This document shows, piece by piece, positions 2,348 to 25,111 of a stretch of 64,000 bases of DNA. The stretch spans positions 13,288 through 77,287 of the forward strand of contig JBDHHV010000038.1 of assembly GCA_039589195.1 (NCBI GenBank), given 5' to 3'. The notes under the pieces were generated by a model, which did no database searches, had not been told where the DNA came from, and saw only the letters and a program-made list of their open reading frames with translations. The position numbers and the translations under genes were made by a program. Positions within the stretch are counted from its first letter, which is position 1, and each line of letters opens with the position of its first letter. The stretch is from Gemmatimonadota bacterium. Its GTDB lineage: Bacteria; Gemmatimonadota; Gemmatimonadetes; Palauibacterales; Palauibacteraceae.

Positions 2348-4075
2348 ATGAAGATCGTGATTCGTGCCGCCGCGCTCATGGGCCTCGGCGCCCTCTTCCT
2401 CTCGGGGTGCAGCGCCCGAGCTGCCGGCCCGAGGGCCCCCGACGCCGGAGCCCCCGACCCCGGAGCTCCCGGTCGAGACATCGAGTCAGCCACGGTCACG
2501 GACCCATCGGTGTTCTGGAACGGCGCCACGGTCTACTTCCTCCTCACCGACCGCTTCCGGAACGGCGACCCCACCAACGACCTGGCTTTGGGCCGTGCGC
2601 AGGACGGCGCGGTGCTGCGCAGCTTCCAGGGTGGTGATCTGGCCGGGCTGCTCCGAACGCTGGAGGAGGGGTACTTCGATGCCCTGGGGATCAACGCCAT
2701 CTGGATGACCCCGTTCGTGGAGCAGATCCACGGGAGCGTCGACGAGGGGACCGGGAAGACCTACGGATTCCACGGGTACTGGACCCGGGACTGGACGGCT
2801 GTCGAGCCGGCGTTGGGGACCGAGGACGACCTGCGAGCAGTGGTCGACGCGGCCCACCGGCGTGGCATCCGCGTCCTCATGGATGCCGTGATCAACCACA
2901 CCGGGCCGGTCACGCCCCGGGATCCGCAGTGGCCCGACGATTGGGTTCGCACCGGCCCCCGGTGCGTCTACCGGGACTACCGCACTACGGTGGACTGCAC
3001 CCTGGTGGACAACCTCCCGGATATCCTCACAGACCGGGATGATCCCGTGGAGCTCCCCCGGCCGCTGATCGAGAAGTGGGAGCGGGAAGGGCGCCTGGAC
3101 CGGGAGCTGGCCGAGCTCGACGCTTTCTTCACGCGCACGGGTTACCCGCGGGCGCCCCGGTACTACATCATGAAGTGGCTCACCGACTGGGTGCGCGAGC
3201 TCGGCTTCGACGGTTACCGGGTGGATACCGCCAAGCATTTCGAAGAGGCGGTCAGCGCGGAGCTGAAGGAGGAAGCCGGGCACGCCTTCGCCGACTGGAA
3301 GGAGACTCATCCGGACCGGGCTCTGGACGCTCTCCCGTTCTACATGATGGGCGAGGTCTACAACTACGAGCTGAGCCACGGGCGTGACTTCGATTTCGGG
3401 GACCGGACCGTGGACTTCTTCGACTACGGTTACGACGGCCTCATCAACTTCGGACTCAAGCGGGAGACCACCGGATCTCTGGACGATCTTTTCACGCGCT
3501 ACTCGGCAGCGCTTCGTGAGGGGGAGCTTCGGGGGGTCGCGATCCTCAACTACGTCAGCTCTCATGACGACGGATCGCCGTACGACCCGGAGCGAAGGGA
3601 CCCGTTCGGCGCAGGAACCCGTCTCCTCCTCGCCCCGGGGGGCGCCCAGATCTACTACGGGGACGAGCTGGCGCGGCCCCTCAGGGTGGAGGGCGCCGAA
3701 GGCGACGCTAACCTCCGCTCCGTCATGAACTGGGATGCCCTGGAACGCGCGGGCTCCACGCCCGAGATCCTGGAACATTGGCGGAAGCTGGGCCGGTTCC
3801 GTCGGGCCCACCCGGCCGTCGGGGCGGGGGAGCATCGCCGGCTCCAGGCAGAGCCGTACATCTTCAGCCGCACCCTCGAGACGGACGGGCTGTACGATCG
3901 CGTGCTCGTGGCGATGGGCCAGGGTGAGGGCTCGGTCACCATCCCTGTCTTCGGAGTGTTTCCCGATGGCGCCGAGCTCCTGGACGCCTACTCGGGGGAG
4001 ACAGGCACGGTCGCTCACGGGGAGATCTCGCTGGTGACCGAGTCCGGTCTGGTTCTCCTGAGCGAGCGGCGGTGA
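2348..4075 (+). CDS. Alpha-amylase family (GH13) lipoprotein
   Basis: Lipoprotein signal LFLSGC. GH13 conserved regions are present: VDAVINHTG, GFDGYRVDTAKH, and YVSSHDD near the C-terminus. Confidence 0.85.
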   Translation: MKIVIRAAALMGLGALFLSGCSARAAGPRAPDAGAPDPGAPGRDIESATVTDPSVFWNGATVYFLLTDRFRNGDPTNDLALGRAQDGAVLRSFQGGDLAGLLRTLEEGYFDALGINAIWMTPFVEQIHGSVDEGTGKTYGFHGYWTRDWTAVEPALGTEDDLRAVVDAAHRRGIRVLMDAVINHTGPVTPRDPQWPDDWVRTGPRCVYRDYRTTVDCTLVDNLPDILTDRDDPVELPRPLIEKWEREGRLDRELAELDAFFTRTGYPRAPRYYIMKWLTDWVRELGFDGYRVDTAKHFEEAVSAELKEEAGHAFADWKETHPDRALDALPFYMMGEVYNYELSHGRDFDFGDRTVDFFDYGYDGLINFGLKRETTGSLDDLFTRYSAALREGELRGVAILNYVSSHDDGSPYDPERRDPFGAGTRLLLAPGGAQIYYGDELARPLRVEGAEGDANLRSVMNWDALERAGSTPEILEHWRKLGRFRRAHPAVGAGEHRRLQAEPYIFSRTLETDGLYDRVLVAMGQGEGSVTIPVFGVFPDGAELLDAYSGETGTVAHGEISLVTESGLVLLSERR

Positions 4076-19008: not shown

Positions 19009-20847
19009 TCAGGGGAGCGCTGTACGGCTCCCTCCCTTCACCCGCTCCCAAGCTGCGGAGCGCACCCGCTCCATCTCCCGCCGGAACTCGGGGCTCGTCC
19101 GGACACGCGCGAACAGCGCGGACTCTAGCACTCGGGGCTCCACGCCGCTCGGGGAGAGCTCGAACGCGATGTCCATCCACGTGACGGCTTGATCCACGTC
19201 ACGGGTCCAGGCGTAGTAACACGCAAGGTCCTCGGCGCGTATCACGTGCGAGTAGATGGAGTCGAGAACGGCCCCCGAGCTCAGCTCCCGGGAGATCGAA
19301 TCAGCGATCACCGTGGCTTCCACGCTCCGCCCCAGCTCGTACAGGCACATGGCTCGAATGCCATCGTGGGGGCCGAGGTCCAGCCCCAGACACTCGCTCG
19401 CTCGCCCGCTGAGCAGTAAGGCCCGGGCCTCGATGGCGCGAGGCAACATCAGCTCCGGCTGCAGCGACCGCGCCGCTCGTGCCTCTTCGAGCGCCCTCTC
19501 GTACCGCCCCAGGGACAGCGCCTCGTAGGCCAGGGCGAGACGGCGACCCGCGTTCTGCGGGTCGAGCGCGATCGCCTGGGCGGCGGCGTCGAAAGCTGCA
19601 TCGACCTCGCCCTGCTGGTTGATGACCCGAGCACACCATGAGAGGGCGTCCGCCGCACCGGGCGCCAACTCGATCGCCCGCCGACAGTCCTCGTCGACAT
19701 CCTCGGGAGGCGCATGAGAACGGGTGGCGATGTATCCGCGGGCCGAATAACCGGACGACCCCTCGGGCTCGAGCTCCACCGCCCGGTTGGCCAACGCGAG
19801 GGCCAGCCCGGCAGCGCCATACCCGTCCAGGTCCCAGCGATAGCGATACGCCAAAGAGAGGGCGTGGGCCTTCGAGAGCGCCGCGTACGCCTCCGCGTGT
19901 CCCTCTTCGAGCTCGATCGCTTCCTCGAACTTCGCCCGAGCCTGGGAGAGTCCCTCCTTGGTACGCCGTCCGAGCCAGCTCTTGCCCAGCAGATAGGCCT
20001 GTTGACCCGTCGTACCGTGCGTGGGGCGATCGAAGCTGACGCTGGTCGTGAGCGCGGGTGTGTTCGCCACGTAGTCGTTCCCGAACGCGCGCGCGATCTC
20101 GCCGGCCGCCGCGAGCCCCTCGGGGACTTCCGCATCGTAACGCTGTGTCCAGACGACGCTTCCCGTCACGCTCTCGGTGGTGCGCACGTTCACCCACATC
20201 CGCCCCGTGTCACGGTAAAGCGAAGCCTGGACGAGCTTGCTGACGCCCAGGGAATCGGCGAGCTGTCGCGGCGTGAACTGCAGGTCGAGGAATCGCTGCA
20301 CCGAAAACGGGTCGATCACCTTGACCCGTCCGATCCTCTTCAACGCGCCGATCATCTCGTCGGTGAGCCCCGCGCTCAGGTTCAAAAGGGCGGAGTCTCC
20401 GGTGCGGTTCTCGACGGGCAGGATCGCTACGGAATCGAGAAAATCGGCCCCCGTGAGCGCCGCGAGCGATTCGCCGCCGGGCGAGCGCCAGGGGCGCCAC
20501 ACCAACAGAAGCGCTGCGAAAAGAGCCAGGGTCGCAGCGGCCGCGACACGGGACCGCCTGGACGGAGGCGGTACCGGTTGGGCCTCGTCGGCAGGCAACT
20601 CGCGCTGGACCCCCTCCGGCGTGAGCTCGAACACCCACGCGAGCGCGACGATGACCGGGAATCCGGCGATCGCGAGGATGACAACGAGTTGATAAGCACC
20701 GTCGGGCAGATAAAGCGCCGGGAAGGTCAGGTCCGCCGCCTCGATGACGCCGAGCGCGACCACCGCGTACACCAGAGCGACACGGAAGACCTTCCTCCGT
20801 TGCAACTCACTCAGAAAAACGCGGATACGAGACGTTGGCTGTTCCAT
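19009..20847 (-). CDS. Membrane-anchored TolB_N-like + TPR repeat protein (sensor/regulatory family)
   Basis: N-terminal RKVFRVALVYAVVALGVIE anchor motif, a TM helix, a TolB_N-like segment (AILPVENRTGD...) and C-terminal TPR-like repeats. Confidence 0.65.
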   Translation of the reverse strand: MEQPTSRIRVFLSELQRRKVFRVALVYAVVALGVIEAADLTFPALYLPDGAYQLVVILAIAGFPVIVALAWVFELTPEGVQRELPADEAQPVPPPSRRSRVAAAATLALFAALLLVWRPWRSPGGESLAALTGADFLDSVAILPVENRTGDSALLNLSAGLTDEMIGALKRIGRVKVIDPFSVQRFLDLQFTPRQLADSLGVSKLVQASLYRDTGRMWVNVRTTESVTGSVVWTQRYDAEVPEGLAAAGEIARAFGNDYVANTPALTTSVSFDRPTHGTTGQQAYLLGKSWLGRRTKEGLSQARAKFEEAIELEEGHAEAYAALSKAHALSLAYRYRWDLDGYGAAGLALALANRAVELEPEGSSGYSARGYIATRSHAPPEDVDEDCRRAIELAPGAADALSWCARVINQQGEVDAAFDAAAQAIALDPQNAGRRLALAYEALSLGRYERALEEARAARSLQPELMLPRAIEARALLLSGRASECLGLDLGPHDGIRAMCLYELGRSVEATVIADSISRELSSGAVLDSIYSHVIRAEDLACYYAWTRDVDQAVTWMDIAFELSPSGVEPRVLESALFARVRTSPEFRREMERVRSAAWERVKGGSRTALP

Positions 20848-21019
20848 GCCGGCCCGGTTGATGGGTGACCATAAAGGATATGGGGAAGGCTGTGGACTCT
20901 ACAAGCCGCCTTCCAGAGCTCCGGAGCTCTCGAACCGGGCAGCGAGGTTGATGGGACTGCTGGGTGCATGCGGGTGTGGTAGGTTCACGCGACATCCCAC
21001 CCTTCGACCCGAGGTGATC

Positions 21020-22228
21020 ATGGACAGGCGCGACTTCGTGAAGACTTCGGCCGTCGGCGTTGCTGCGGCGGCGACCCCGGGCGCTCTGGCGGCGGCGATA
21101 CCGGACGCTCCGGCTGCCCCCACCCCGAGGCGAGCCCCGACGATGCTCAAACCCCGCGCCGTGCGGCCCGTCGTGATCTCGGACCTGAGCGGGATCCGCT
21201 TCAAGAACGGCGGCCCGGAGAGCGCGATCGAGCGGGCGTTCCGCGGCATCACCGAAGGAGAGGACGTGCTCGACGCCCTGATCGGGGGTGTGAACATCCC
21301 GGAGAGCGATCCGGCCGAGATGGGGATCGGCTATGGCGGTCTTCCGAACGCCGATGGAGTCGTCCAGCTCGACTCGTGCTGTATGCACGGGCCCCGCAAG
21401 TGGGCGGGTGGCGTGGCCGCGCTCGAAGGGATTCGCACGCCGTCCCTCGTCGCGCAGGCCGTCGCCGAGCTCACCGACCATCACCTCCTCGTCGGACACG
21501 GCGCGCAGGCCTTCGCACGCGCGCTCGGGTTCGAGATCGAGGACGACCTCAATACCGACGAGTCGAGGGCGTTGTGGCTCGAGTGGCGTCGACGGGCAGA
21601 CCCCGGCCATTGGCTCGATCCGGAGGAGCGGCTCCAGGACCAGGGCCTTCAGGGCGAGGACACCGATCCAGAGGGGATCCGCGAGTTCGCCGACGCGGCG
21701 CTCGAAGCGGGCCTCTCGATGGTCGACGACGGCCTGATCCCGGCGCACTCGTTCTGGGGCACGGTCAACTGCGACGGGATCGGTCCCGACGGCGATATCT
21801 GCGGCGTGACGACTACGAGCGGGCTGTCGTGGAAGATCCCGGGACGTACGGGCGACTCGCCCATCCTGGGAGCCGGGCTGTACGTGGACAACGAAGTCGG
21901 TGCCGCCGGCTCGACCGGACGCGGCGAAGCGAACCTCTACAACCTGTCCTCGTTCCTGATCGTCGAGTTCATGCGCCAGGGGATGAGCCCGAAAGATGCA
22001 GGCATGGCGGCGCTACGGCGGATCCAGTCCAACACGGTCGAGCCCCGGCTGCTGAACTCGCGCGGGCTCCCGAACTTCGATGTGCGCTTCTTCATCTTGA
22101 ACAAGCAAGGGGAATACGCCGGCGTCGCGATGTACGGCTCGAGCGAGACGCATTACGCCGTTTGCACGGAGAACGGCGCCGAGGAGCTGCCGTTCGAGCG
22201 GGTGCTGGAGGGGTCACCTCGAGACTGA
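21020..22228 (+). CDS. N-terminal nucleophile hydrolase, asparaginase-2 / isoaspartyl peptidase / glycosylasparaginase family, TAT-exported
   Basis: ATG 21020 with GAGGTG upstream. TAT motif RRDFVKTSAVGVAAAA. Family regions HSFWGTVNCDGIG and ILGAGLYVDNEVGAAGSTGRGE. Confidence 0.75.
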   Translation: MDRRDFVKTSAVGVAAAATPGALAAAIPDAPAAPTPRRAPTMLKPRAVRPVVISDLSGIRFKNGGPESAIERAFRGITEGEDVLDALIGGVNIPESDPAEMGIGYGGLPNADGVVQLDSCCMHGPRKWAGGVAALEGIRTPSLVAQAVAELTDHHLLVGHGAQAFARALGFEIEDDLNTDESRALWLEWRRRADPGHWLDPEERLQDQGLQGEDTDPEGIREFADAALEAGLSMVDDGLIPAHSFWGTVNCDGIGPDGDICGVTTTSGLSWKIPGRTGDSPILGAGLYVDNEVGAAGSTGRGEANLYNLSSFLIVEFMRQGMSPKDAGMAALRRIQSNTVEPRLLNSRGLPNFDVRFFILNKQGEYAGVAMYGSSETHYAVCTENGAEELPFERVLEGSPRD

Positions 22229-22342
22229 TCGGGGGGAGGGGCTCGCGACTCACGCCGCGAGGTTCCCACGGTTGCGCGAGCGAAGCCGGTCCGGCTGTCC
22301 CCGCGCTCCCGCACCCCGAGGACGTGCAACCCGGACTGCGGT

Positions 22343-22368
22343 GTAACCTCCGGCGTCCAGCCACAGTC
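22343..22368 (+). promoter_or_regulatory. Putative ECF-type promoter GTAACC-N17-GTC upstream of the sigma/anti-sigma operon
   Basis: tgGTAACCtccggcgtccagccacaGTCa lies 86 nt upstream of ATG 22454. The same motif and spacing recur at 23697. Confidence 0.4.
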
Positions 22369-22453
22369 ACATCAGAGACTGGGACCGCGGAGGGAGCCCC
22401 TGCTCGTGTTCGGTGTGCATCGTTCCTTCCAGGACAGCGGAATGGTGGGGTGA

Positions 22454-23014
22454 ATGCGCGCGGATAGGACCGACCCTGAGTTGATGGCGGCCGTGGCCCG
22501 TGGTGACCTGAACGCGCTCGGGGTGTTGTTCGAACGTCATCACGCGCTGGTACACTCGCTCTGCTACCGGATGACCGGGAGCTCCTCCGTCGCCGACGAC
22601 CTCGCGCAGGAGTCCTTCCTGCGAGTCCTCAGATACAGCGTTGGATTCGAGGCCCGGGCCGCCTTCACGACGTGGTTGTACAGGCTGGTCAGGAACGTCT
22701 GCGTCGATCATCTGGACGCCGAGTCCAGGTCCCTGGCACGAGCGACGAGAATGGCGTCAGAGCAGGAACACTTGCGGGAATCGGCGATCGTGGAGGCCTC
22801 CGAGACCGATCCCCGGCTCGAGACCTTGGCGAAAGCCCTGTACGCGCTGCCGGCCGAGCGCCGGGAAGTGCTGGTATTGAGCCGCTACATGGGCTTGAGC
22901 TACGCGGAGATCGCCGAAGTGTGCGACACCACGGTCGGTGCCATCAAAGTGCGAGCGCACCGGGCGATGCGAGAGCTGCGTTCCAGATTCGAGGAGTTGG
23001 AGCAAGCGCTATGA
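22454..23014 (+). CDS. RNA polymerase ECF sigma factor (sigma-70 group 4)
   Basis: Sigma region 2 (LVHSLCYRMTG...DLAQESFLRV) and region 4 (LSYAEIAEVCDTTVGAIKVRAHRA). The stop overlaps the next gene's start (ATGA). Confidence 0.85.
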   Translation: MRADRTDPELMAAVARGDLNALGVLFERHHALVHSLCYRMTGSSSVADDLAQESFLRVLRYSVGFEARAAFTTWLYRLVRNVCVDHLDAESRSLARATRMASEQEHLRESAIVEASETDPRLETLAKALYALPAERREVLVLSRYMGLSYAEIAEVCDTTVGAIKVRAHRAMRELRSRFEELEQAL

Positions 23015-23676
23015 TGTGCGAAACTGCGGTCGATCTGATCATCGACTCCCTCATGAGCCCGCGGGACGAGGGGCCGGACGAGGACCTGTCCGCCCACCTG
23101 CGCTCATGTCCCTCGTGTGCTGCCGAAGCCGAGAGAATCCGGCGAATCTGGCAGGATCTCGGCAAGCTGAGCGCGCCGGACGCCACGCCGCGCGCGGCGG
23201 TGGAGTTCGGTCGGCGCCTACACGCCTCGCGACGCGGCTCTCGCATCCGACCGCTGCTGCGGGCGGCGGCCGCGATCGCTCTCCTCTCCCTCGGCGCTGC
23301 CGCCGGATACGCGGCGCGAGGGGGCGGATCCGATGGTGTGACGGCTTCCGTTTCCGGACAGCTTGAGTTCCTGCTGCTGGTAAGAGGGGGGCCGCAGGGC
23401 CCCGTCGAGGCCGCAGGCGTGGTGCTGGAATACCAGCAGTGGGCATTGGCGCTGGCGAGCGAAGGCCGTCTGGTGGGCGGGAACAAGCTGATGGATGAGC
23501 CCGGCCGCTGGCTTTCAGCACCGCGGGCGGAAGATCCACGCACCAGCTCCGATATCTCGGGCTACTTTCTGGTGAGCGCGTCCGACTACGAGGAGGCGAT
23601 CGAGATCGCCCGGACATCGCCCCACATCGGCTATGGCGGGACGTTCGAGATTCGGCAGGTAGACCCGGTGAACTGA
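23011..23676 (+). CDS. Anti-sigma factor: zinc-finger (HxxxCxxC) N-domain + TM helix + C-terminal YciI/DGPF-like domain
   Basis: Translationally coupled to the sigma gene. HLRSCPSC motif. TM segment AAAIALLSLGAAAGYA. C-terminal GYFLVSASDYEEAIEIARTSPHIGYGGTFEIRQV resembles YCII-related domains. Confidence 0.7.
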   Translation: MMCETAVDLIIDSLMSPRDEGPDEDLSAHLRSCPSCAAEAERIRRIWQDLGKLSAPDATPRAAVEFGRRLHASRRGSRIRPLLRAAAAIALLSLGAAAGYAARGGGSDGVTASVSGQLEFLLLVRGGPQGPVEAAGVVLEYQQWALALASEGRLVGGNKLMDEPGRWLSAPRAEDPRTSSDISGYFLVSASDYEEAIEIARTSPHIGYGGTFEIRQVDPVN

Positions 23677-23696
23677 CGCGCCCACCGACTCGGGTT

Positions 23697-23722
23697 GTAA
23701 CCTCTCCGGTCGAGTTCCGGTC
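23697..23722 (+). promoter_or_regulatory. Second copy of the GTAACC-N17-GTC motif, upstream of gene 23755
   Basis: ttGTAACCtctccggtcgagttccgGTCc lies 33 nt upstream of ATG 23755. It shares the extended TGTAACCTC(T)CCGG -35 context with the site at 22343. Confidence 0.4.
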
Positions 23723-23754
23723 CAACGGCTGTACCCCAACACGCCGGAGGACAC

Positions 23755-24414
23755 ATGAACAGACTGATTCAAGTGGCTCTCGTTCTGCTACTGACCGCGC
23801 CGGGCATCGCCCCAACCGGGGCCGTAGCGCAGAGCGCCGAGACCGAGCCCCCTATGTTGTCGGAAGCCGAAGAGATCGTTCTGGCGCGAAGCGCGGCGCC
23901 CTCGAACGTGTCGGGTGAGGCGGCGATCCTGGTGCTTCGCGATGGGCGGTATGAAACAGCGGTACCGGGGTCGAACGACGTCACGTGCATGGTGTCGCGC
24001 AGCCAGCCGTTGTCCCTCGAGCCCATCTGCTACGATCCGGAAGCATCCAGGACGATGCTGCGCATGGAGATACGCCGGGTCGAGATGCGTCTGGCCGGCG
24101 TATCCGAAGAGGAGCGCGAGAGACACATCGCGGAATCGATCGGTAGCGGGGAGCTGACCCTCCCGCGGCGGCCGGCCCTCGCCTACATGCTTTCAGCCGG
24201 TCAGATCCTGTACGCGGACGCCGAAACGAGGGTCGGCGCGTGGAATCCGCACATGCATCTGTACATGCCCTACGCGACGGCCGAGCAGTTCGGCGGTCTG
24301 ATTCCCGGCGGGACCTCGACCGGTACCGCGTTCGTTTTCGACGCCGGGAAACCGACCGCGAATCTCGTCGTGATCGTGAGGGAGTTCGTAGAGCCCGAGG
24401 TGGCTGGAAGATAG
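23755..24414 (+). CDS. Hypothetical secreted protein
   Basis: Sec signal (ALVLLLTAPGIAPTGAVA). No recognisable motifs. Located immediately downstream of the ECF operon and the promoter-like motif. Confidence 0.55.
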   Translation: MNRLIQVALVLLLTAPGIAPTGAVAQSAETEPPMLSEAEEIVLARSAAPSNVSGEAAILVLRDGRYETAVPGSNDVTCMVSRSQPLSLEPICYDPEASRTMLRMEIRRVEMRLAGVSEEERERHIAESIGSGELTLPRRPALAYMLSAGQILYADAETRVGAWNPHMHLYMPYATAEQFGGLIPGGTSTGTAFVFDAGKPTANLVVIVREFVEPEVAGR

Positions 24415-24438
24415 TCCGGAAGGGACGTCGGGCTCATT

Positions 24439-24888
24439 TTACTCCGGAAGATCCGGGAGAGGTTCACCCTGGGGGACGAAGCGGAGCGCCGCGCCGTTGT
24501 TGCAGTACCGCTTACCGGTCGGCGGCGGCCCGTCTCCGAACACGTGGCCCTGGTGTCCCCCGCACCGGGCACAGTGATACTCGGTGCGCGGTAGCAGAAG
24601 CTTGAAGTCACGCTTCGTCTCCACATGCCCCGGCAGGTGGTCGAAGAAGCTCGGCCAGCCCGTGCCGCTGTCGAACTTGGCGTCCGCGCGGAACAGTGGG
24701 AGAAAGCACGCGGCGCACACGAACGTGCCGGGGCGCTTCTCCCCGTCCAGCTCGCTGGACCCCGCAGGCTCAGTCGCTTCTTCGAACAAGATGCGATAGG
24801 AGTCTGCGGGGAGCAGCTCGCGCCATTCCACCCTCGTCTTCTCGAGCGGAGTGTACTCCGGTCCGGCTTCGCCTGTCTCGCCCGTCAC
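24439..24888 (-). CDS. msrB: Peptide-methionine (R)-S-oxide reductase
   Basis: MsrB signatures GWPSF and RTEYHCARCGGHQGHVF...RYCNN. GTG start. Confidence 0.85.
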   Translation of the reverse strand: MTGETGEAGPEYTPLEKTRVEWRELLPADSYRILFEEATEPAGSSELDGEKRPGTFVCAACFLPLFRADAKFDSGTGWPSFFDHLPGHVETKRDFKLLLPRTEYHCARCGGHQGHVFGDGPPPTGKRYCNNGAALRFVPQGEPLPDLPE

Positions 24889-25077
24889 CGTGTCTCGCTT
24901 TTCTCTTCGTGGTCGCGGGTCCGCCCCGAGGACCGAGCTCAGCCGGATGGGTAGCTACCGAGGCCGGAAGAGAAGGGGACGCACGCCTTGGCCGATAGTA
25001 TAGTCATGGCAAGAGCCCGGCGCCGAGGTTTCGAGGGATTGGCTCTTCGGCCGTGACCACGGGATGCACTGATGGCT

Positions 25078-25111
25078 GAAGGGGGCGGCGCTACCACGCG
25101 CCGCCCCCTTC
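25078..25111 (-). terminator. GC-rich hairpin (14-bp stem, 6-nt loop) downstream of gene 25158..25667
   Basis: gaagggggcggcgc-taccac-gcgccgcccccttc is a perfect inverted repeat. No U-tract follows on either strand. Confidence 0.4.

Follow-up and report, generated by a model that had tools for sequence, protein, structure and literature searches.

ECF sigma factors are usually autoregulated, and their genes are grouped with those of their regulators and targets (PMC7826278). In E. coli, the sigma factor RpoE, its single-pass anti-sigma factor RseA and the periplasmic protein RseB are co-encoded under an autoregulated ECF promoter, and RseB is known to bind the periplasmic domain of RseA. Another well-described example is SigW-RsiW of Bacillus subtilis, where the zinc-binding, single-pass anti-sigma factor RsiW has a cytoplasmic zinc anti-sigma domain, one transmembrane (TM) helix and an extracytoplasmic domain; SigW is released by regulated intramembrane proteolysis and acts on dozens of genes, with the promoter consensus TGAAAC-N16-CGTATA. 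A cysteine followed by an HxxxCxxC motif, in an anti-sigma factor whose gene is translationally coupled to the sigma gene, is also seen in RsrA (the partner of SigR in Streptomyces), RslA and ChrR. RsrA is soluble and is itself a redox sensor, while many zinc-binding anti-sigma factors, including RsiW and ChrR, are not. In Caulobacter crescentus, the SigF motif is GTAACC-N16-CGAA (PMC3511200), and the SigF-NrsF system (ECF16) has a small regulon of envelope proteins and a six-TM anti-sigma factor, NrsF (DUF1109). In the ECF42 systems of Streptomyces venezuelae and Pseudomonas putida (ECF-10), a YCII/DGPF-type protein is genetically tied to a sigma factor that has a C-terminal extension of ~200 aa (DUF6596/TPR) and no anti-sigma factor; this YCII protein is conserved beside ECF42 and is suspected of a role in its regulation (PMC8999054).

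Here we describe a locus in a 64-kb stretch of Gemmatimonadota DNA, the whole of which was analysed and is referred to as the window. The analysis provides good support for a three-gene stress-signalling unit made up of an ECF sigma factor, a membrane anti-sigma factor that carries a YCII domain, and a secreted protein, and we place the probability of the whole reading, a dedicated three-gene ECF signalling module, at about three in four. The layout is that of SigW-RsiW, and the putative promoters are similar in their AAC-containing -35, GT-containing -10 and spacer of ~17 nt; in contrast, the extracytoplasmic domain is a YCII domain unrelated to that of RsiW, and the apparent regulon in the 64 kb scanned is one secreted protein. 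The genetic link between a YCII/DGPF-type domain and an ECF sigma factor recalls the ECF42 systems, but here the domain is fused to an anti-sigma factor, beyond the TM helix. Membership of ECF42 was rejected, since the sigma factor is a minimal protein of 186 aa that lacks the extension and is accompanied by an anti-sigma factor. The cysteine motif and the translational coupling are shared with RsrA, RslA and ChrR, although unlike RsrA the anti-sigma factor is predicted to be membrane-anchored, carries an extra domain and has a sister sub-family entirely without the ZAS cysteines. With SigF-NrsF the locus has in common the identical -35 hexamer GTAACC and the small envelope regulon, but the regulon members are unrelated, and NrsF has neither ZAS nor YCII; the one-TM ZAS-YCII anti-sigma factor and a -10 of GTC rather than CGAA argue against membership of ECF16. 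The likeness to RpoE-RseA-RseB lies in the co-encoding of three such components under a putative autoregulated promoter; the secreted protein might contact the YCII domain as RseB contacts RseA, but it has no sequence or fold similarity to RseB.

Gene content and domain architecture of the locus

The identities of the genes and the domain architecture of their products (Table 1) were established in silico, and no further copies of the three genes were found elsewhere in the 64-kb window.

Table 1. Features of the locus, with positions given in the window and the evidence for each.
Feature	Positions	Strand	Evidence
Putative promoter P1 of the sigma/anti-sigma operon: -35 TGTAACCT 22342-22349, -10 core GTC 22366-22368, conserved A 22371	22342..22371	+	Pattern match, matrix 29.4 bits, footprinting
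ECF (group 4) sigma factor, 186 aa	22454..23014	+	Pfam, NCBIfam
Anti-sigma factor, 221 aa	23011..23676	+	ATGA overlap, invariant C/H residues, family profiles, AlphaFold, hydropathy
Zinc-binding anti-sigma domain (predicted), residues 1-75	23011-23235	+	
TM helix (predicted), residues 80-102	23248-23316	+	
Extracytoplasmic (predicted) YCII/DGPF-type domain, residues ~115-219	23353-23667	+	
Putative promoter P2 of the target gene: -35 TGTAACCT 23696-23703, GTC 23720-23722, conserved A 23725	23696..23725	+	Pattern match, matrix 32.4 bits, footprinting
Target gene, secreted (predicted) 219-aa protein of an uncharacterised family	23755..24414	+	Synteny, signal peptide, alignment
Terminator-like hairpin with T-rich tail, located between the target gene and convergent msrB	24413..24434	+	Consensus scan, pattern match only
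msrB, SelR domain 6.6e-41	24439..24888	-	Pfam

The sigma factor has the composition of ECF group 4, with sigma-2 and sigma-4 domains only (Pfam Sigma70_r2, 6.4e-18, residues 25-92; Sigma70_r4_2, 6.8e-16, residues 124-175) and a length within the range of ~160-200 aa. It passes the cut-off of NCBIfam TIGR02937 (93.4 bits, cut-off 42.9), while its matches to NCBIfam equivalogs, that of SigW included, are all sub-threshold; among relatives of solved structure, B. subtilis SigW is the closest (9.7e-20). The main text of two papers on ECF sigma factors (PMC7826278; PMC7406223) contains no mention of YCII anti-sigma factors or of a group from Gemmatimonadota.

A sequence-only reading of this DNA had proposed overlapping sigma and anti-sigma genes, an anti-sigma factor composed of an HxxxCxxC zinc-finger N-domain, one TM helix and a YciI/DGPF-like C-terminal domain, and a secreted hypothetical protein as the product of the following gene, and each of these proposals was borne out. 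The ATG of the anti-sigma gene and the TGA of the sigma gene share ATGA at 23011-23014. H29-x3-C33-x2-C36 is present together with C3, and all four residues (C-x25-H-x3-C-x2-C) are invariant across 28 anti-sigma homologues. With these residues, the helical N-terminal domain is that of class I (ZAS) anti-sigma factors; the AlphaFold model has four N-terminal helices at 3-74 followed by the TM helix, and the family profile gives a weak match to RsiW over the HxxxCxxC helices. The domain is predicted to bind zinc and the sigma factor. As a separate observation, the translational coupling and strict co-occurrence of the sigma and anti-sigma genes lend indirect support to sequestration.

Both terminal domains are recognised by Pfam across the family, as zf-HC2 is matched by 26 of the 28 members (best E 4.4e-8) and YCII (PF03795) by all 28 (best E 5.6e-9). 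The protein from the window alone scores 18.9 bits against zf-HC2 (gathering cut-off 22.2) and 18.3 bits against YCII (gathering cut-off 24), so that both assignments rest on the family. Between the two domains lies a single hydrophobic segment, modelled by AlphaFold as one continuous helix of 23 residues followed by a low-confidence linker, with a positive-inside bias of seven K/R before it and one after. It is rich in Ala/Gly, and its Kyte-Doolittle 19-residue maximum (1.61, centred on residue 91) is barely at the classical threshold; its position is kept across both sub-families described below, and the segment of the second is more hydrophobic.

The C-terminal domain, predicted to be periplasmic, is linked to YciI-like proteins by the match of the family profile to PDB 1s7i (PA1349; 3.5e-4) and by a Foldseek search with the model, where the best matches were 1s7i, 1mwq (HI0828 YciI), ClcF and TftG. 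Its modelled elements (E118-125, H134-150, E154-159, E182-190, H193-201, E211-217) follow the beta-alpha-beta-beta-alpha-beta order of a ferredoxin-like fold, in keeping with its place in the YCII/DGPF superfamily of dimeric alpha+beta barrels. Characterised proteins of this superfamily have catalytic or ligand-binding residues such as the His-Asp dyad of TftG. The present family has an invariant motif of its own, PH-x3-GG (P204, H205, G209/G210), which PA1349 lacks in the profile alignment. PA1349 is the best PDB match, and the best relatives of this domain outside the family are found in ECF42-DGPF pairs of Acidobacteria (L018 and L021), where the sigma factor of L018 has 425 aa and carries DUF6596, and the stand-alone YCII proteins of these two examples have no TM segment.

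The target gene has a GGAGG 6 nt 5' of its ATG, and its product has a predicted signal peptide (~residues 1-26, AVA/QS) and no Pfam or NCBIfam match. It carries a LARSAAP motif, and C78, R82, C92, M145, S147, Q150, P165 and H166 are invariant in the alignment. The protein is modelled with a confident fold (AlphaFold pLDDT 87.6), for which a comparison with the PDB returned no fold match and no solved structural relative. Its family comprises ~3000 sequence clusters, and members elsewhere are fused to VOC, DinB_2, DUF4440 (SnoaL) or DUF6265, partners that point to periplasmic small-molecule chemistry. Distant homologues (P0146, P0148) have no ECF or YCII neighbour, and the link to ECF sigma factors is therefore specific to one clade of the family. 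Conservation of the target protein is ~70%, as compared to ~57% for the anti-sigma factor.

Downstream of the target gene, at a distance of 24 nt, lies the convergent msrB. It was considered as a member of the unit and rejected, since none of the 17 related loci contains it and no motif precedes it; the hairpin between the two genes is likely the 3' end of the unit.

Conservation of the gene trio and its promoter motif

The sigma factor, the anti-sigma factor and the 219-aa protein occur together in 16 of 17 related Gemmatimonadota genome loci. A second sub-family was found in 35 metagenome loci, where the target, an ECF sigma factor and a TM-YCII anti-sigma factor are arranged in a different gene order, with the target leading the putatively autoregulated operon. 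In this sub-family, the anti-sigma factor has no HxxxCxxC or zinc finger cysteines, and a related putative promoter, GCAACC-N17-CACT, lies ahead of the target with the same 17-nt spacing. The trio thus persists where the zinc finger is absent and the promoter has shifted, which leaves the YCII domain and its secreted partner as the constant core.

The sequence-only reading had also suggested that a repeated GTAACC-N17-GTC motif, read as an ECF promoter (AAC -35, GTC -10, 17-nt spacer), defines a mini-regulon of the sigma operon and the gene at 23755, with autoregulation of the sigma factor and with msrB outside it. The pattern does occur exactly twice in 64 kb (22343-22368 and 23697-23722), where 0.25 matches would be expected; two matches arose in 2 of 100 shuffled versions of the window. 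Its copies lie close to the distances then proposed, with 85 nt from the end of GTC to the sigma ATG and 32 nt to the ATG at 23755; P2 begins 20 nt past the anti-sigma stop codon, and the spacer from GTAACC to GTC is 17 nt at both sites. When a weight matrix built from orthologous loci of other genomes only, with the window left out, was run over both strands of the window, P2 scored 32.4 bits, P1 29.4 bits and the next best site 4.6 bits. The matrix scan found no more regulon members in the 64-kb window and no site for msrB, in keeping with the earlier proposal.

The same two motif positions recur across the 17 related loci, where the consensus is tGTAACCT-N13-C[G/A]GTCnnA. The 29 instances, taken from the window and 16 different loci, all conform to GTAAC[C/T/A]-N17-[G/A]TC; in their alignment the spacer is fixed in length and unconserved in sequence, and information is high in the -35 and -10 blocks only. 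All instances face the sigma gene or the gene for the 219-aa protein, with the start codon 12-151 nt away, and the motif tracks the target gene when this is inverted, giving back-to-back motifs at the divergent loci L011, L015 and L076. A scan over 508 kb of related loci placed sites of at least 16 bits at the expected positions only, with one exception (L016), a third promoter site ahead of a VOC lipoprotein gene. The VOC protein of L016 and a neighbouring ORF of L034, which has no Pfam match, had no further copies near other modules by tblastn. In silico, both sites are shown to be conserved and specific, and phylogenetic footprinting supports their reading as ECF promoters. A putative two-block promoter (AAC -35, GTC/CGT -10, 16-17 nt spacer) ahead of the sigma factor's own operon is the arrangement of ECF sigma factors, and its conservation in the window and in related loci suggests that the sigma factor is autoregulated. 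The mini-regulon likewise holds for the 64 kb and the neighbourhoods of the relatives, which is the scope of the scan.

In one related locus (L017), the target gene directly adjoins the anti-sigma gene and lacks a separate promoter. A consensus scan found no terminator between the anti-sigma and target genes of the window, so P2 may be just an auxiliary promoter inside one transcript. No sigma-70-type promoter for basal expression was found in 22100-25100, and Rfam searches of the 85-nt leader and the intergenic regions gave no meaningful match to known RNA elements. GCAACC at 22326, just 5' of P1, was considered as a second, type-B-like promoter and rejected, as it has no CAC at 17-nt spacing.

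Proposed mechanism and alternative explanations

In the resting state, the zinc-binding N-domain of the anti-sigma factor would hold the sigma factor at the inner membrane, and the protein would cross the membrane once, with the YCII/DGPF-type alpha+beta-barrel domain facing the periplasm. We infer that this domain is the input, and its ligand could be a small molecule or else the secreted protein conserved alongside it. A signal would then lead to inactivation of the anti-sigma factor, most likely through regulated proteolysis as for RsiW or RseA, and the freed sigma factor would steer RNA polymerase to the two tGTAACCT-N13-C[G/A]GTCnnA promoters. Action at P1 would result in positive autoregulation of the sigma/anti-sigma operon, while P2 would drive the single output gene at 23755-24414, whose secreted product has two invariant cysteines. 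In this scheme, the nature of the signal, the mode of release and the function of the target are proposals. We advance only tentatively that the YCII/DGPF domain is a genuine extracytoplasmic ECF input domain, which senses or processes a small molecule and/or docks the secreted partner and so controls the stability of the anti-sigma factor.

The secreted protein could also be a periplasmic co-regulator that binds the YCII domain and tunes the stability of the anti-sigma factor, as RseB does for RseA, with the real regulon elsewhere in the genome. It accompanies the YCII anti-sigma factor through two gene orders and two N-terminal types, opens the autoregulated operon of the second sub-family and is better conserved than the anti-sigma factor; however, distant members of its family lack any ECF or YCII neighbour, and fusions to enzyme-like VOC, DinB_2 and SnoaL/DUF4440 domains fit an effector better than a dedicated regulator. 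We consider this explanation rather unlikely as an account of the whole, although the roles of output and co-regulator are not mutually exclusive. A thiol/redox switch acting in the cytoplasm, like RsrA-SigR, is improbable; here oxidation of the ZAS cysteines would release zinc and the sigma factor to induce an oxidative-stress regulon, with msrB linked and the YCII domain an accessory. All four ZAS ligands are invariant, their C-to-H spacing is one that we take to equal that of RsrA, the target has two invariant cysteines and msrB is its near neighbour, but msrB occurs in none of the 17 related loci and lacks the motif, and the closest solved sigma factor is SigW rather than SigR. RsiW and ChrR bind zinc yet are not redox sensors. 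In the second sub-family, the YCII domain and the target are retained but HxxxCxxC is absent, so the element conserved for sensing is not the zinc finger.

The marginal hydropathy of the Ala/Gly-rich segment, together with the TM-less DGPF proteins that are the closest stand-alone relatives (two examples, beside ECF42-type sigma factors), could mean that the segment does not span the membrane and that the anti-sigma factor is wholly cytoplasmic with its YCII domain, like a fused form of the soluble ECF42-associated DGPF proteins. This is very unlikely given the conserved position of the segment in both sub-families, its greater hydrophobicity in the second, the 7 to 1 positive-inside bias, the continuous modelled helix before a low-confidence linker and the signal peptide of the co-conserved partner. 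It is hardly credible that the repeated sequence is something other than a promoter, such as a duplicate arisen by chance, a mobile or repeat element, or an operator bound by a different regulator; while the bare 9-base pattern also arises twice in an occasional shuffle, the 29 orthologous instances with their invariant spacer length and unconserved spacer sequence, the scores of 29-32 bits against 4.6, and the strand-specific placement always 5' of one of two genes all argue against it. In addition, the motif is not palindromic, Rfam finds nothing, and a corresponding motif of two blocks, also 17 nt apart, is present in the sister sub-family.

Significance of a YCII domain fused to an anti-sigma factor

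The logic of the proposed three-gene module is not new, as autoregulated ECF sigma/anti-sigma pairs are textbook systems. What is new is the predicted use of a YCII/DGPF domain as the outer portion of an anti-sigma factor, the uncharacterised output protein and the natural specificity pair formed by the two sub-families. A literature full-text search found no description of a YCII/DGPF domain in this position, and database entries label such anti-sigma proteins hypothetical. The GTAACC/GTC and GCAACC/CAC sub-families, with their common 17-nt spacing, possibly represent orthogonal sigma/promoter sets and offer a clean system for studies of ECF promoter recognition, in a module that is small, self-contained and simple to rebuild in a heterologous host.

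The fusion bears on the YCII proteins that accompany ECF42 sigma factors (PMC8999054), as the physical joining of YCII to an anti-sigma factor provides a concrete argument for placing the domain on the input side. If the reading of YCII as an input is true, the fused architecture would be a 'Rosetta stone' for the widespread DGPF-ECF42 link, and the secreted partner would found a structurally unprecedented periplasmic family that handles small molecules, with ~3000 clusters.

Gene order and the predicted two-block promoter motif

The three genes of this region, all in the same direction, encode a predicted ECF-type sigma factor, whose nearest solved sigma factor is SigW, an anti-sigma factor, and a secreted 219-aa protein (the target), with 78 nt between the anti-sigma and target genes. 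The sequence-only reading had proposed the ATGA overlap of the first two genes, a secreted hypothetical product of the third, and msrB directly downstream on the opposite strand, outside the unit. All of these were found, and searches of Pfam and NCBIfam gave no family for the target. In 17 related loci (Gemmatimonadota with the same anti-sigma factor, found by scanning one genome from each species), the target gene adjoins the sigma/anti-sigma pair in 16, and msrB is adjacent in none. Where the target gene and msrB converge, a terminator-like hairpin lies in the gap and could end both transcripts.

Coordinates of the module and of features in its vicinity and in compared loci
Feature	Location	Strand	Remarks
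Sigma factor, 186 aa	window 22454..23014	+	Sigma70_r2 + Sigma70_r4_2, no other domain
Anti-sigma factor, 221 aa	window 23011..23676	+	start overlaps sigma stop codon as ATGA
Target gene, 219 aa	window 23755..24414	+	GGAGG 6 nt before ATG; N-terminal signal peptide ending AVA/QS
msrB	window 24439..24888	-	SelR domain, 6.6e-41
Hairpin, T-rich tail	window 24413-24434		in 24-nt gap between target gene and msrB
P1, predicted sigma/anti-sigma promoter	window 22342..22371	+
P2, predicted target promoter	window 23696..23725	+
Asparaginase_2-family gene	window 20744-22228	+	TAT signal; mechanical ORF 494 aa
Membrane-anchored protein, 612 aa	window 19009-20847	-	faint TPR match; upstream of module
Relatives of the 612-aa protein	L002 2856-5132; L008 6879-8786		26-28% identical
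VOC/glyoxalase-family lipoprotein, 195 aa	L016 3579-4181	-
Type-B modules (examples among L029-L104)	L034 3170-4958; L082 3896-5693
YCII protein and ECF42-type sigma	L018 5196-6811; L021 4995-6589		acidobacterial
G-rich tandem repeats	L009 ~1895-1950; L067 ~2290-2340; L088 ~3800-3870; L029 ~480-540

As had been noted, the 64 kb contain exact matches to GTAACC-N17-GTC at two positions (22343 and 23697; 0.25 expected) and nowhere else. In the related loci, TGTAACCT-N16-GTC recurs at the same two sites, one ahead of the sigma gene and one some 20 nt past the anti-sigma stop codon. The spacer from GTAAC[C/T/A] to [G/A]TC is exactly 17 nt in 29/29 aligned instances; its sequence is unconserved, and the information content is concentrated in the blocks tGTAACCT and C[G/A]GTCnnA. 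When the window's two copies are left out of the matrix, they still score 32.4 and 29.4 bits, and the next best site in the window reaches 4.6. In L011, L015 and L075/L076, where the target and sigma genes are transcribed divergently, the motifs lie back to back in opposite orientation, either one directed toward its own gene. In 508 kb of loci, sites of at least 16 bits were confined to the expected positions, with the single exception of a third strong copy (28 bits) ahead of a VOC/glyoxalase-family lipoprotein gene in L016.

An AAC-containing -35, a GTC -10 and a 17-nt spacer fit general ECF promoter architecture. The conserved, directional behaviour of the motif at fixed spacing, always toward a sigma or target gene, bears out the earlier promoter reading and marks GTAACC-N17-GTC as a predicted promoter, so that a chance repeat or operator would be the wrong reading; that it is something other than a promoter is very unlikely. 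Autoregulation is typical of ECF sigma factors (PMC7826278).

As regards the surroundings, the true start of the Asparaginase_2-family gene is uncertain, since public annotations of identical contigs make the product 361 or 402 aa long. In two other loci, relatives of the 612-aa protein lie within a few kb of the module, which may reflect a common paralogous family rather than true linkage. G-rich short tandem repeats (GGTCAGGC, GGTCAGAG, GGGATAGG and similar) directly adjoin modules in several Gemmatimonadota loci.

The anti-sigma factor and a sister module

Taken alone, the anti-sigma factor matches Pfam below threshold (zf-HC2 18.9 bits, YCII 18.3 bits). The 56 homologues that a database search returned come without exception from Gemmatimonadota metagenomes or MAGs, and nearly all are annotated hypothetical; among 28 of them, scanned individually, YCII is matched by 28/28 and zf-HC2 by 26/28. 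In the alignment of these 28, C3, H29, C33 and C36 are invariant, by sequence the complete zinc-ligand set of a ZAS (zinc-binding anti-sigma) domain, as is a C-terminal SPH-x2-YGGTFEIR block. The family profile matches PDB 1s7i (PA1349, a DGPF-type YCII protein) at 3.5e-4; its match to RsiW, which covers the zinc-finger helices, is weak. The AlphaFold model has four N-terminal helices and a long helix (80-102) that a low-confidence linker joins to a beta-alpha-beta-beta-alpha-beta domain, and its top Foldseek matches are PA1349, YciI HI0828, ClcF and TftG. A hydropathy maximum of 1.61 at residue 91, with seven K/R before the segment and one after, predicts that the N-domain is intracellular and the YCII domain extracytoplasmic. 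These lines agree with the architecture first proposed, an HxxxCxxC N-domain, one TM helix and an external YciI/DGPF-like domain.

A metagenome search with the target family gave 313 relatives, from which 80 loci were retained, and 35 loci have a second arrangement (type B, as opposed to the window's type A). Here the order is secreted target, ECF sigma factor (~165 aa, 26-34% identical) and ~190-aa anti-sigma factor, again with ATGA-type coupling. The type-B anti-sigma factor starts with a short region that contains no HxxxCxxC, followed by a TM helix and the YCII domain known from type A, carrying a PH-x3-GG signature (CPHxxYGG). Of 64 non-redundant loci, 39 have GCAACC-N17-CAC(T) at 23-85 nt ahead of the type-B target gene, a motif that keeps the type-A spacing and departs from type A in the -10 triplet and at one position of the -35 hexamer. 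The association of the three genes predates their order, and the elements constant to both types are an ECF sigma factor, a YCII domain anchored by a TM helix, and a secreted protein under a predicted ECF promoter. With the zinc finger dispensable, as type B shows, and the YCII domain kept in both, the comparison speaks for the latter, not the ZAS motif, as the conserved sensory element.

Proposed mechanism and alternatives

In the proposed mechanism, the zinc-binding N-domain would keep the sigma factor sequestered at the membrane until an event in the periplasm at the YCII domain inactivates the anti-sigma factor, with release most likely through regulated proteolysis, by analogy with RsiW and RseA. 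The freed sigma factor would then transcribe from P1, giving positive feedback, and from P2, giving the secreted-protein output. No terminator was found between the anti-sigma gene and P2, and in L017, where the target gene abuts the anti-sigma gene, it has no separate promoter. Transcripts from P1 therefore probably continue into the target gene, with P2 adding target-specific output.

Two observations weaken the idea of a redox switch acting through the ZAS cysteines: type B lacks HxxxCxxC, and msrB is not conserved beside the module. A cytoplasmic YCII domain is unlikely, as both the K/R charge bias and the secretion of the partner protein speak against it. It is possible that the target is an RseB-like co-regulator, which is compatible with the sequestration and release proposed here.

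The target family and relation to known systems

An exhaustive profile search with the target gave 2955 clusters (50% identity) at E <=1e-3 and 349 at <=1e-30. Across an alignment taking in distant members, E40, A44, A47, A48, A56, G72, C78, V80, R82, C92, M145, S147, Q150, P165 and H166 are invariant. Some family members are fused to VOC/glyoxalase (P0098, P0103), DinB_2, DUF4440/SnoaL-like or DUF6265 domains, and the lipoprotein behind the third motif copy in L016 likewise belongs to the VOC family; one distant relative lies beside a GST and an SRPBCC protein without an ECF neighbour, and another has an unrelated gene context. Proteins of these kinds typically take part in the detoxification of small molecules or electrophiles, a contextual hint to function.

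Read from its genes, the system would work like SigW-RsiW and RpoE-RseA-RseB. Its -35 hexamer GTAACC is shared with Caulobacter SigF (PMC3511200), although the -10 and anti-sigma type differ. The nearest non-fused relatives of its YCII domain are stand-alone DGPF proteins translationally coupled to 425-aa ECF42-type sigma factors with a DUF6596 extension (L018, L021), and the role of YCII proteins next to ECF42 is unresolved according to the literature (PMC8999054). ECF42 identity was rejected for the window's sigma factor, which has no C-terminal extension and is accompanied by an anti-sigma factor. Full-text literature searches for YCII with anti-sigma factor found no description of such a fusion.

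Overall, genes, domains, conserved motif and trio confirm the original observation and support its interpretation. The system is a Gemmatimonadota-specific ECF module with an uncharacterised output protein and an equally uncharacterised proposed sensor domain; its predicted logic is ordinary and its in silico support good. It is valuable chiefly as a way into the YCII/DGPF-ECF connection and into a large protein family of unknown fold.
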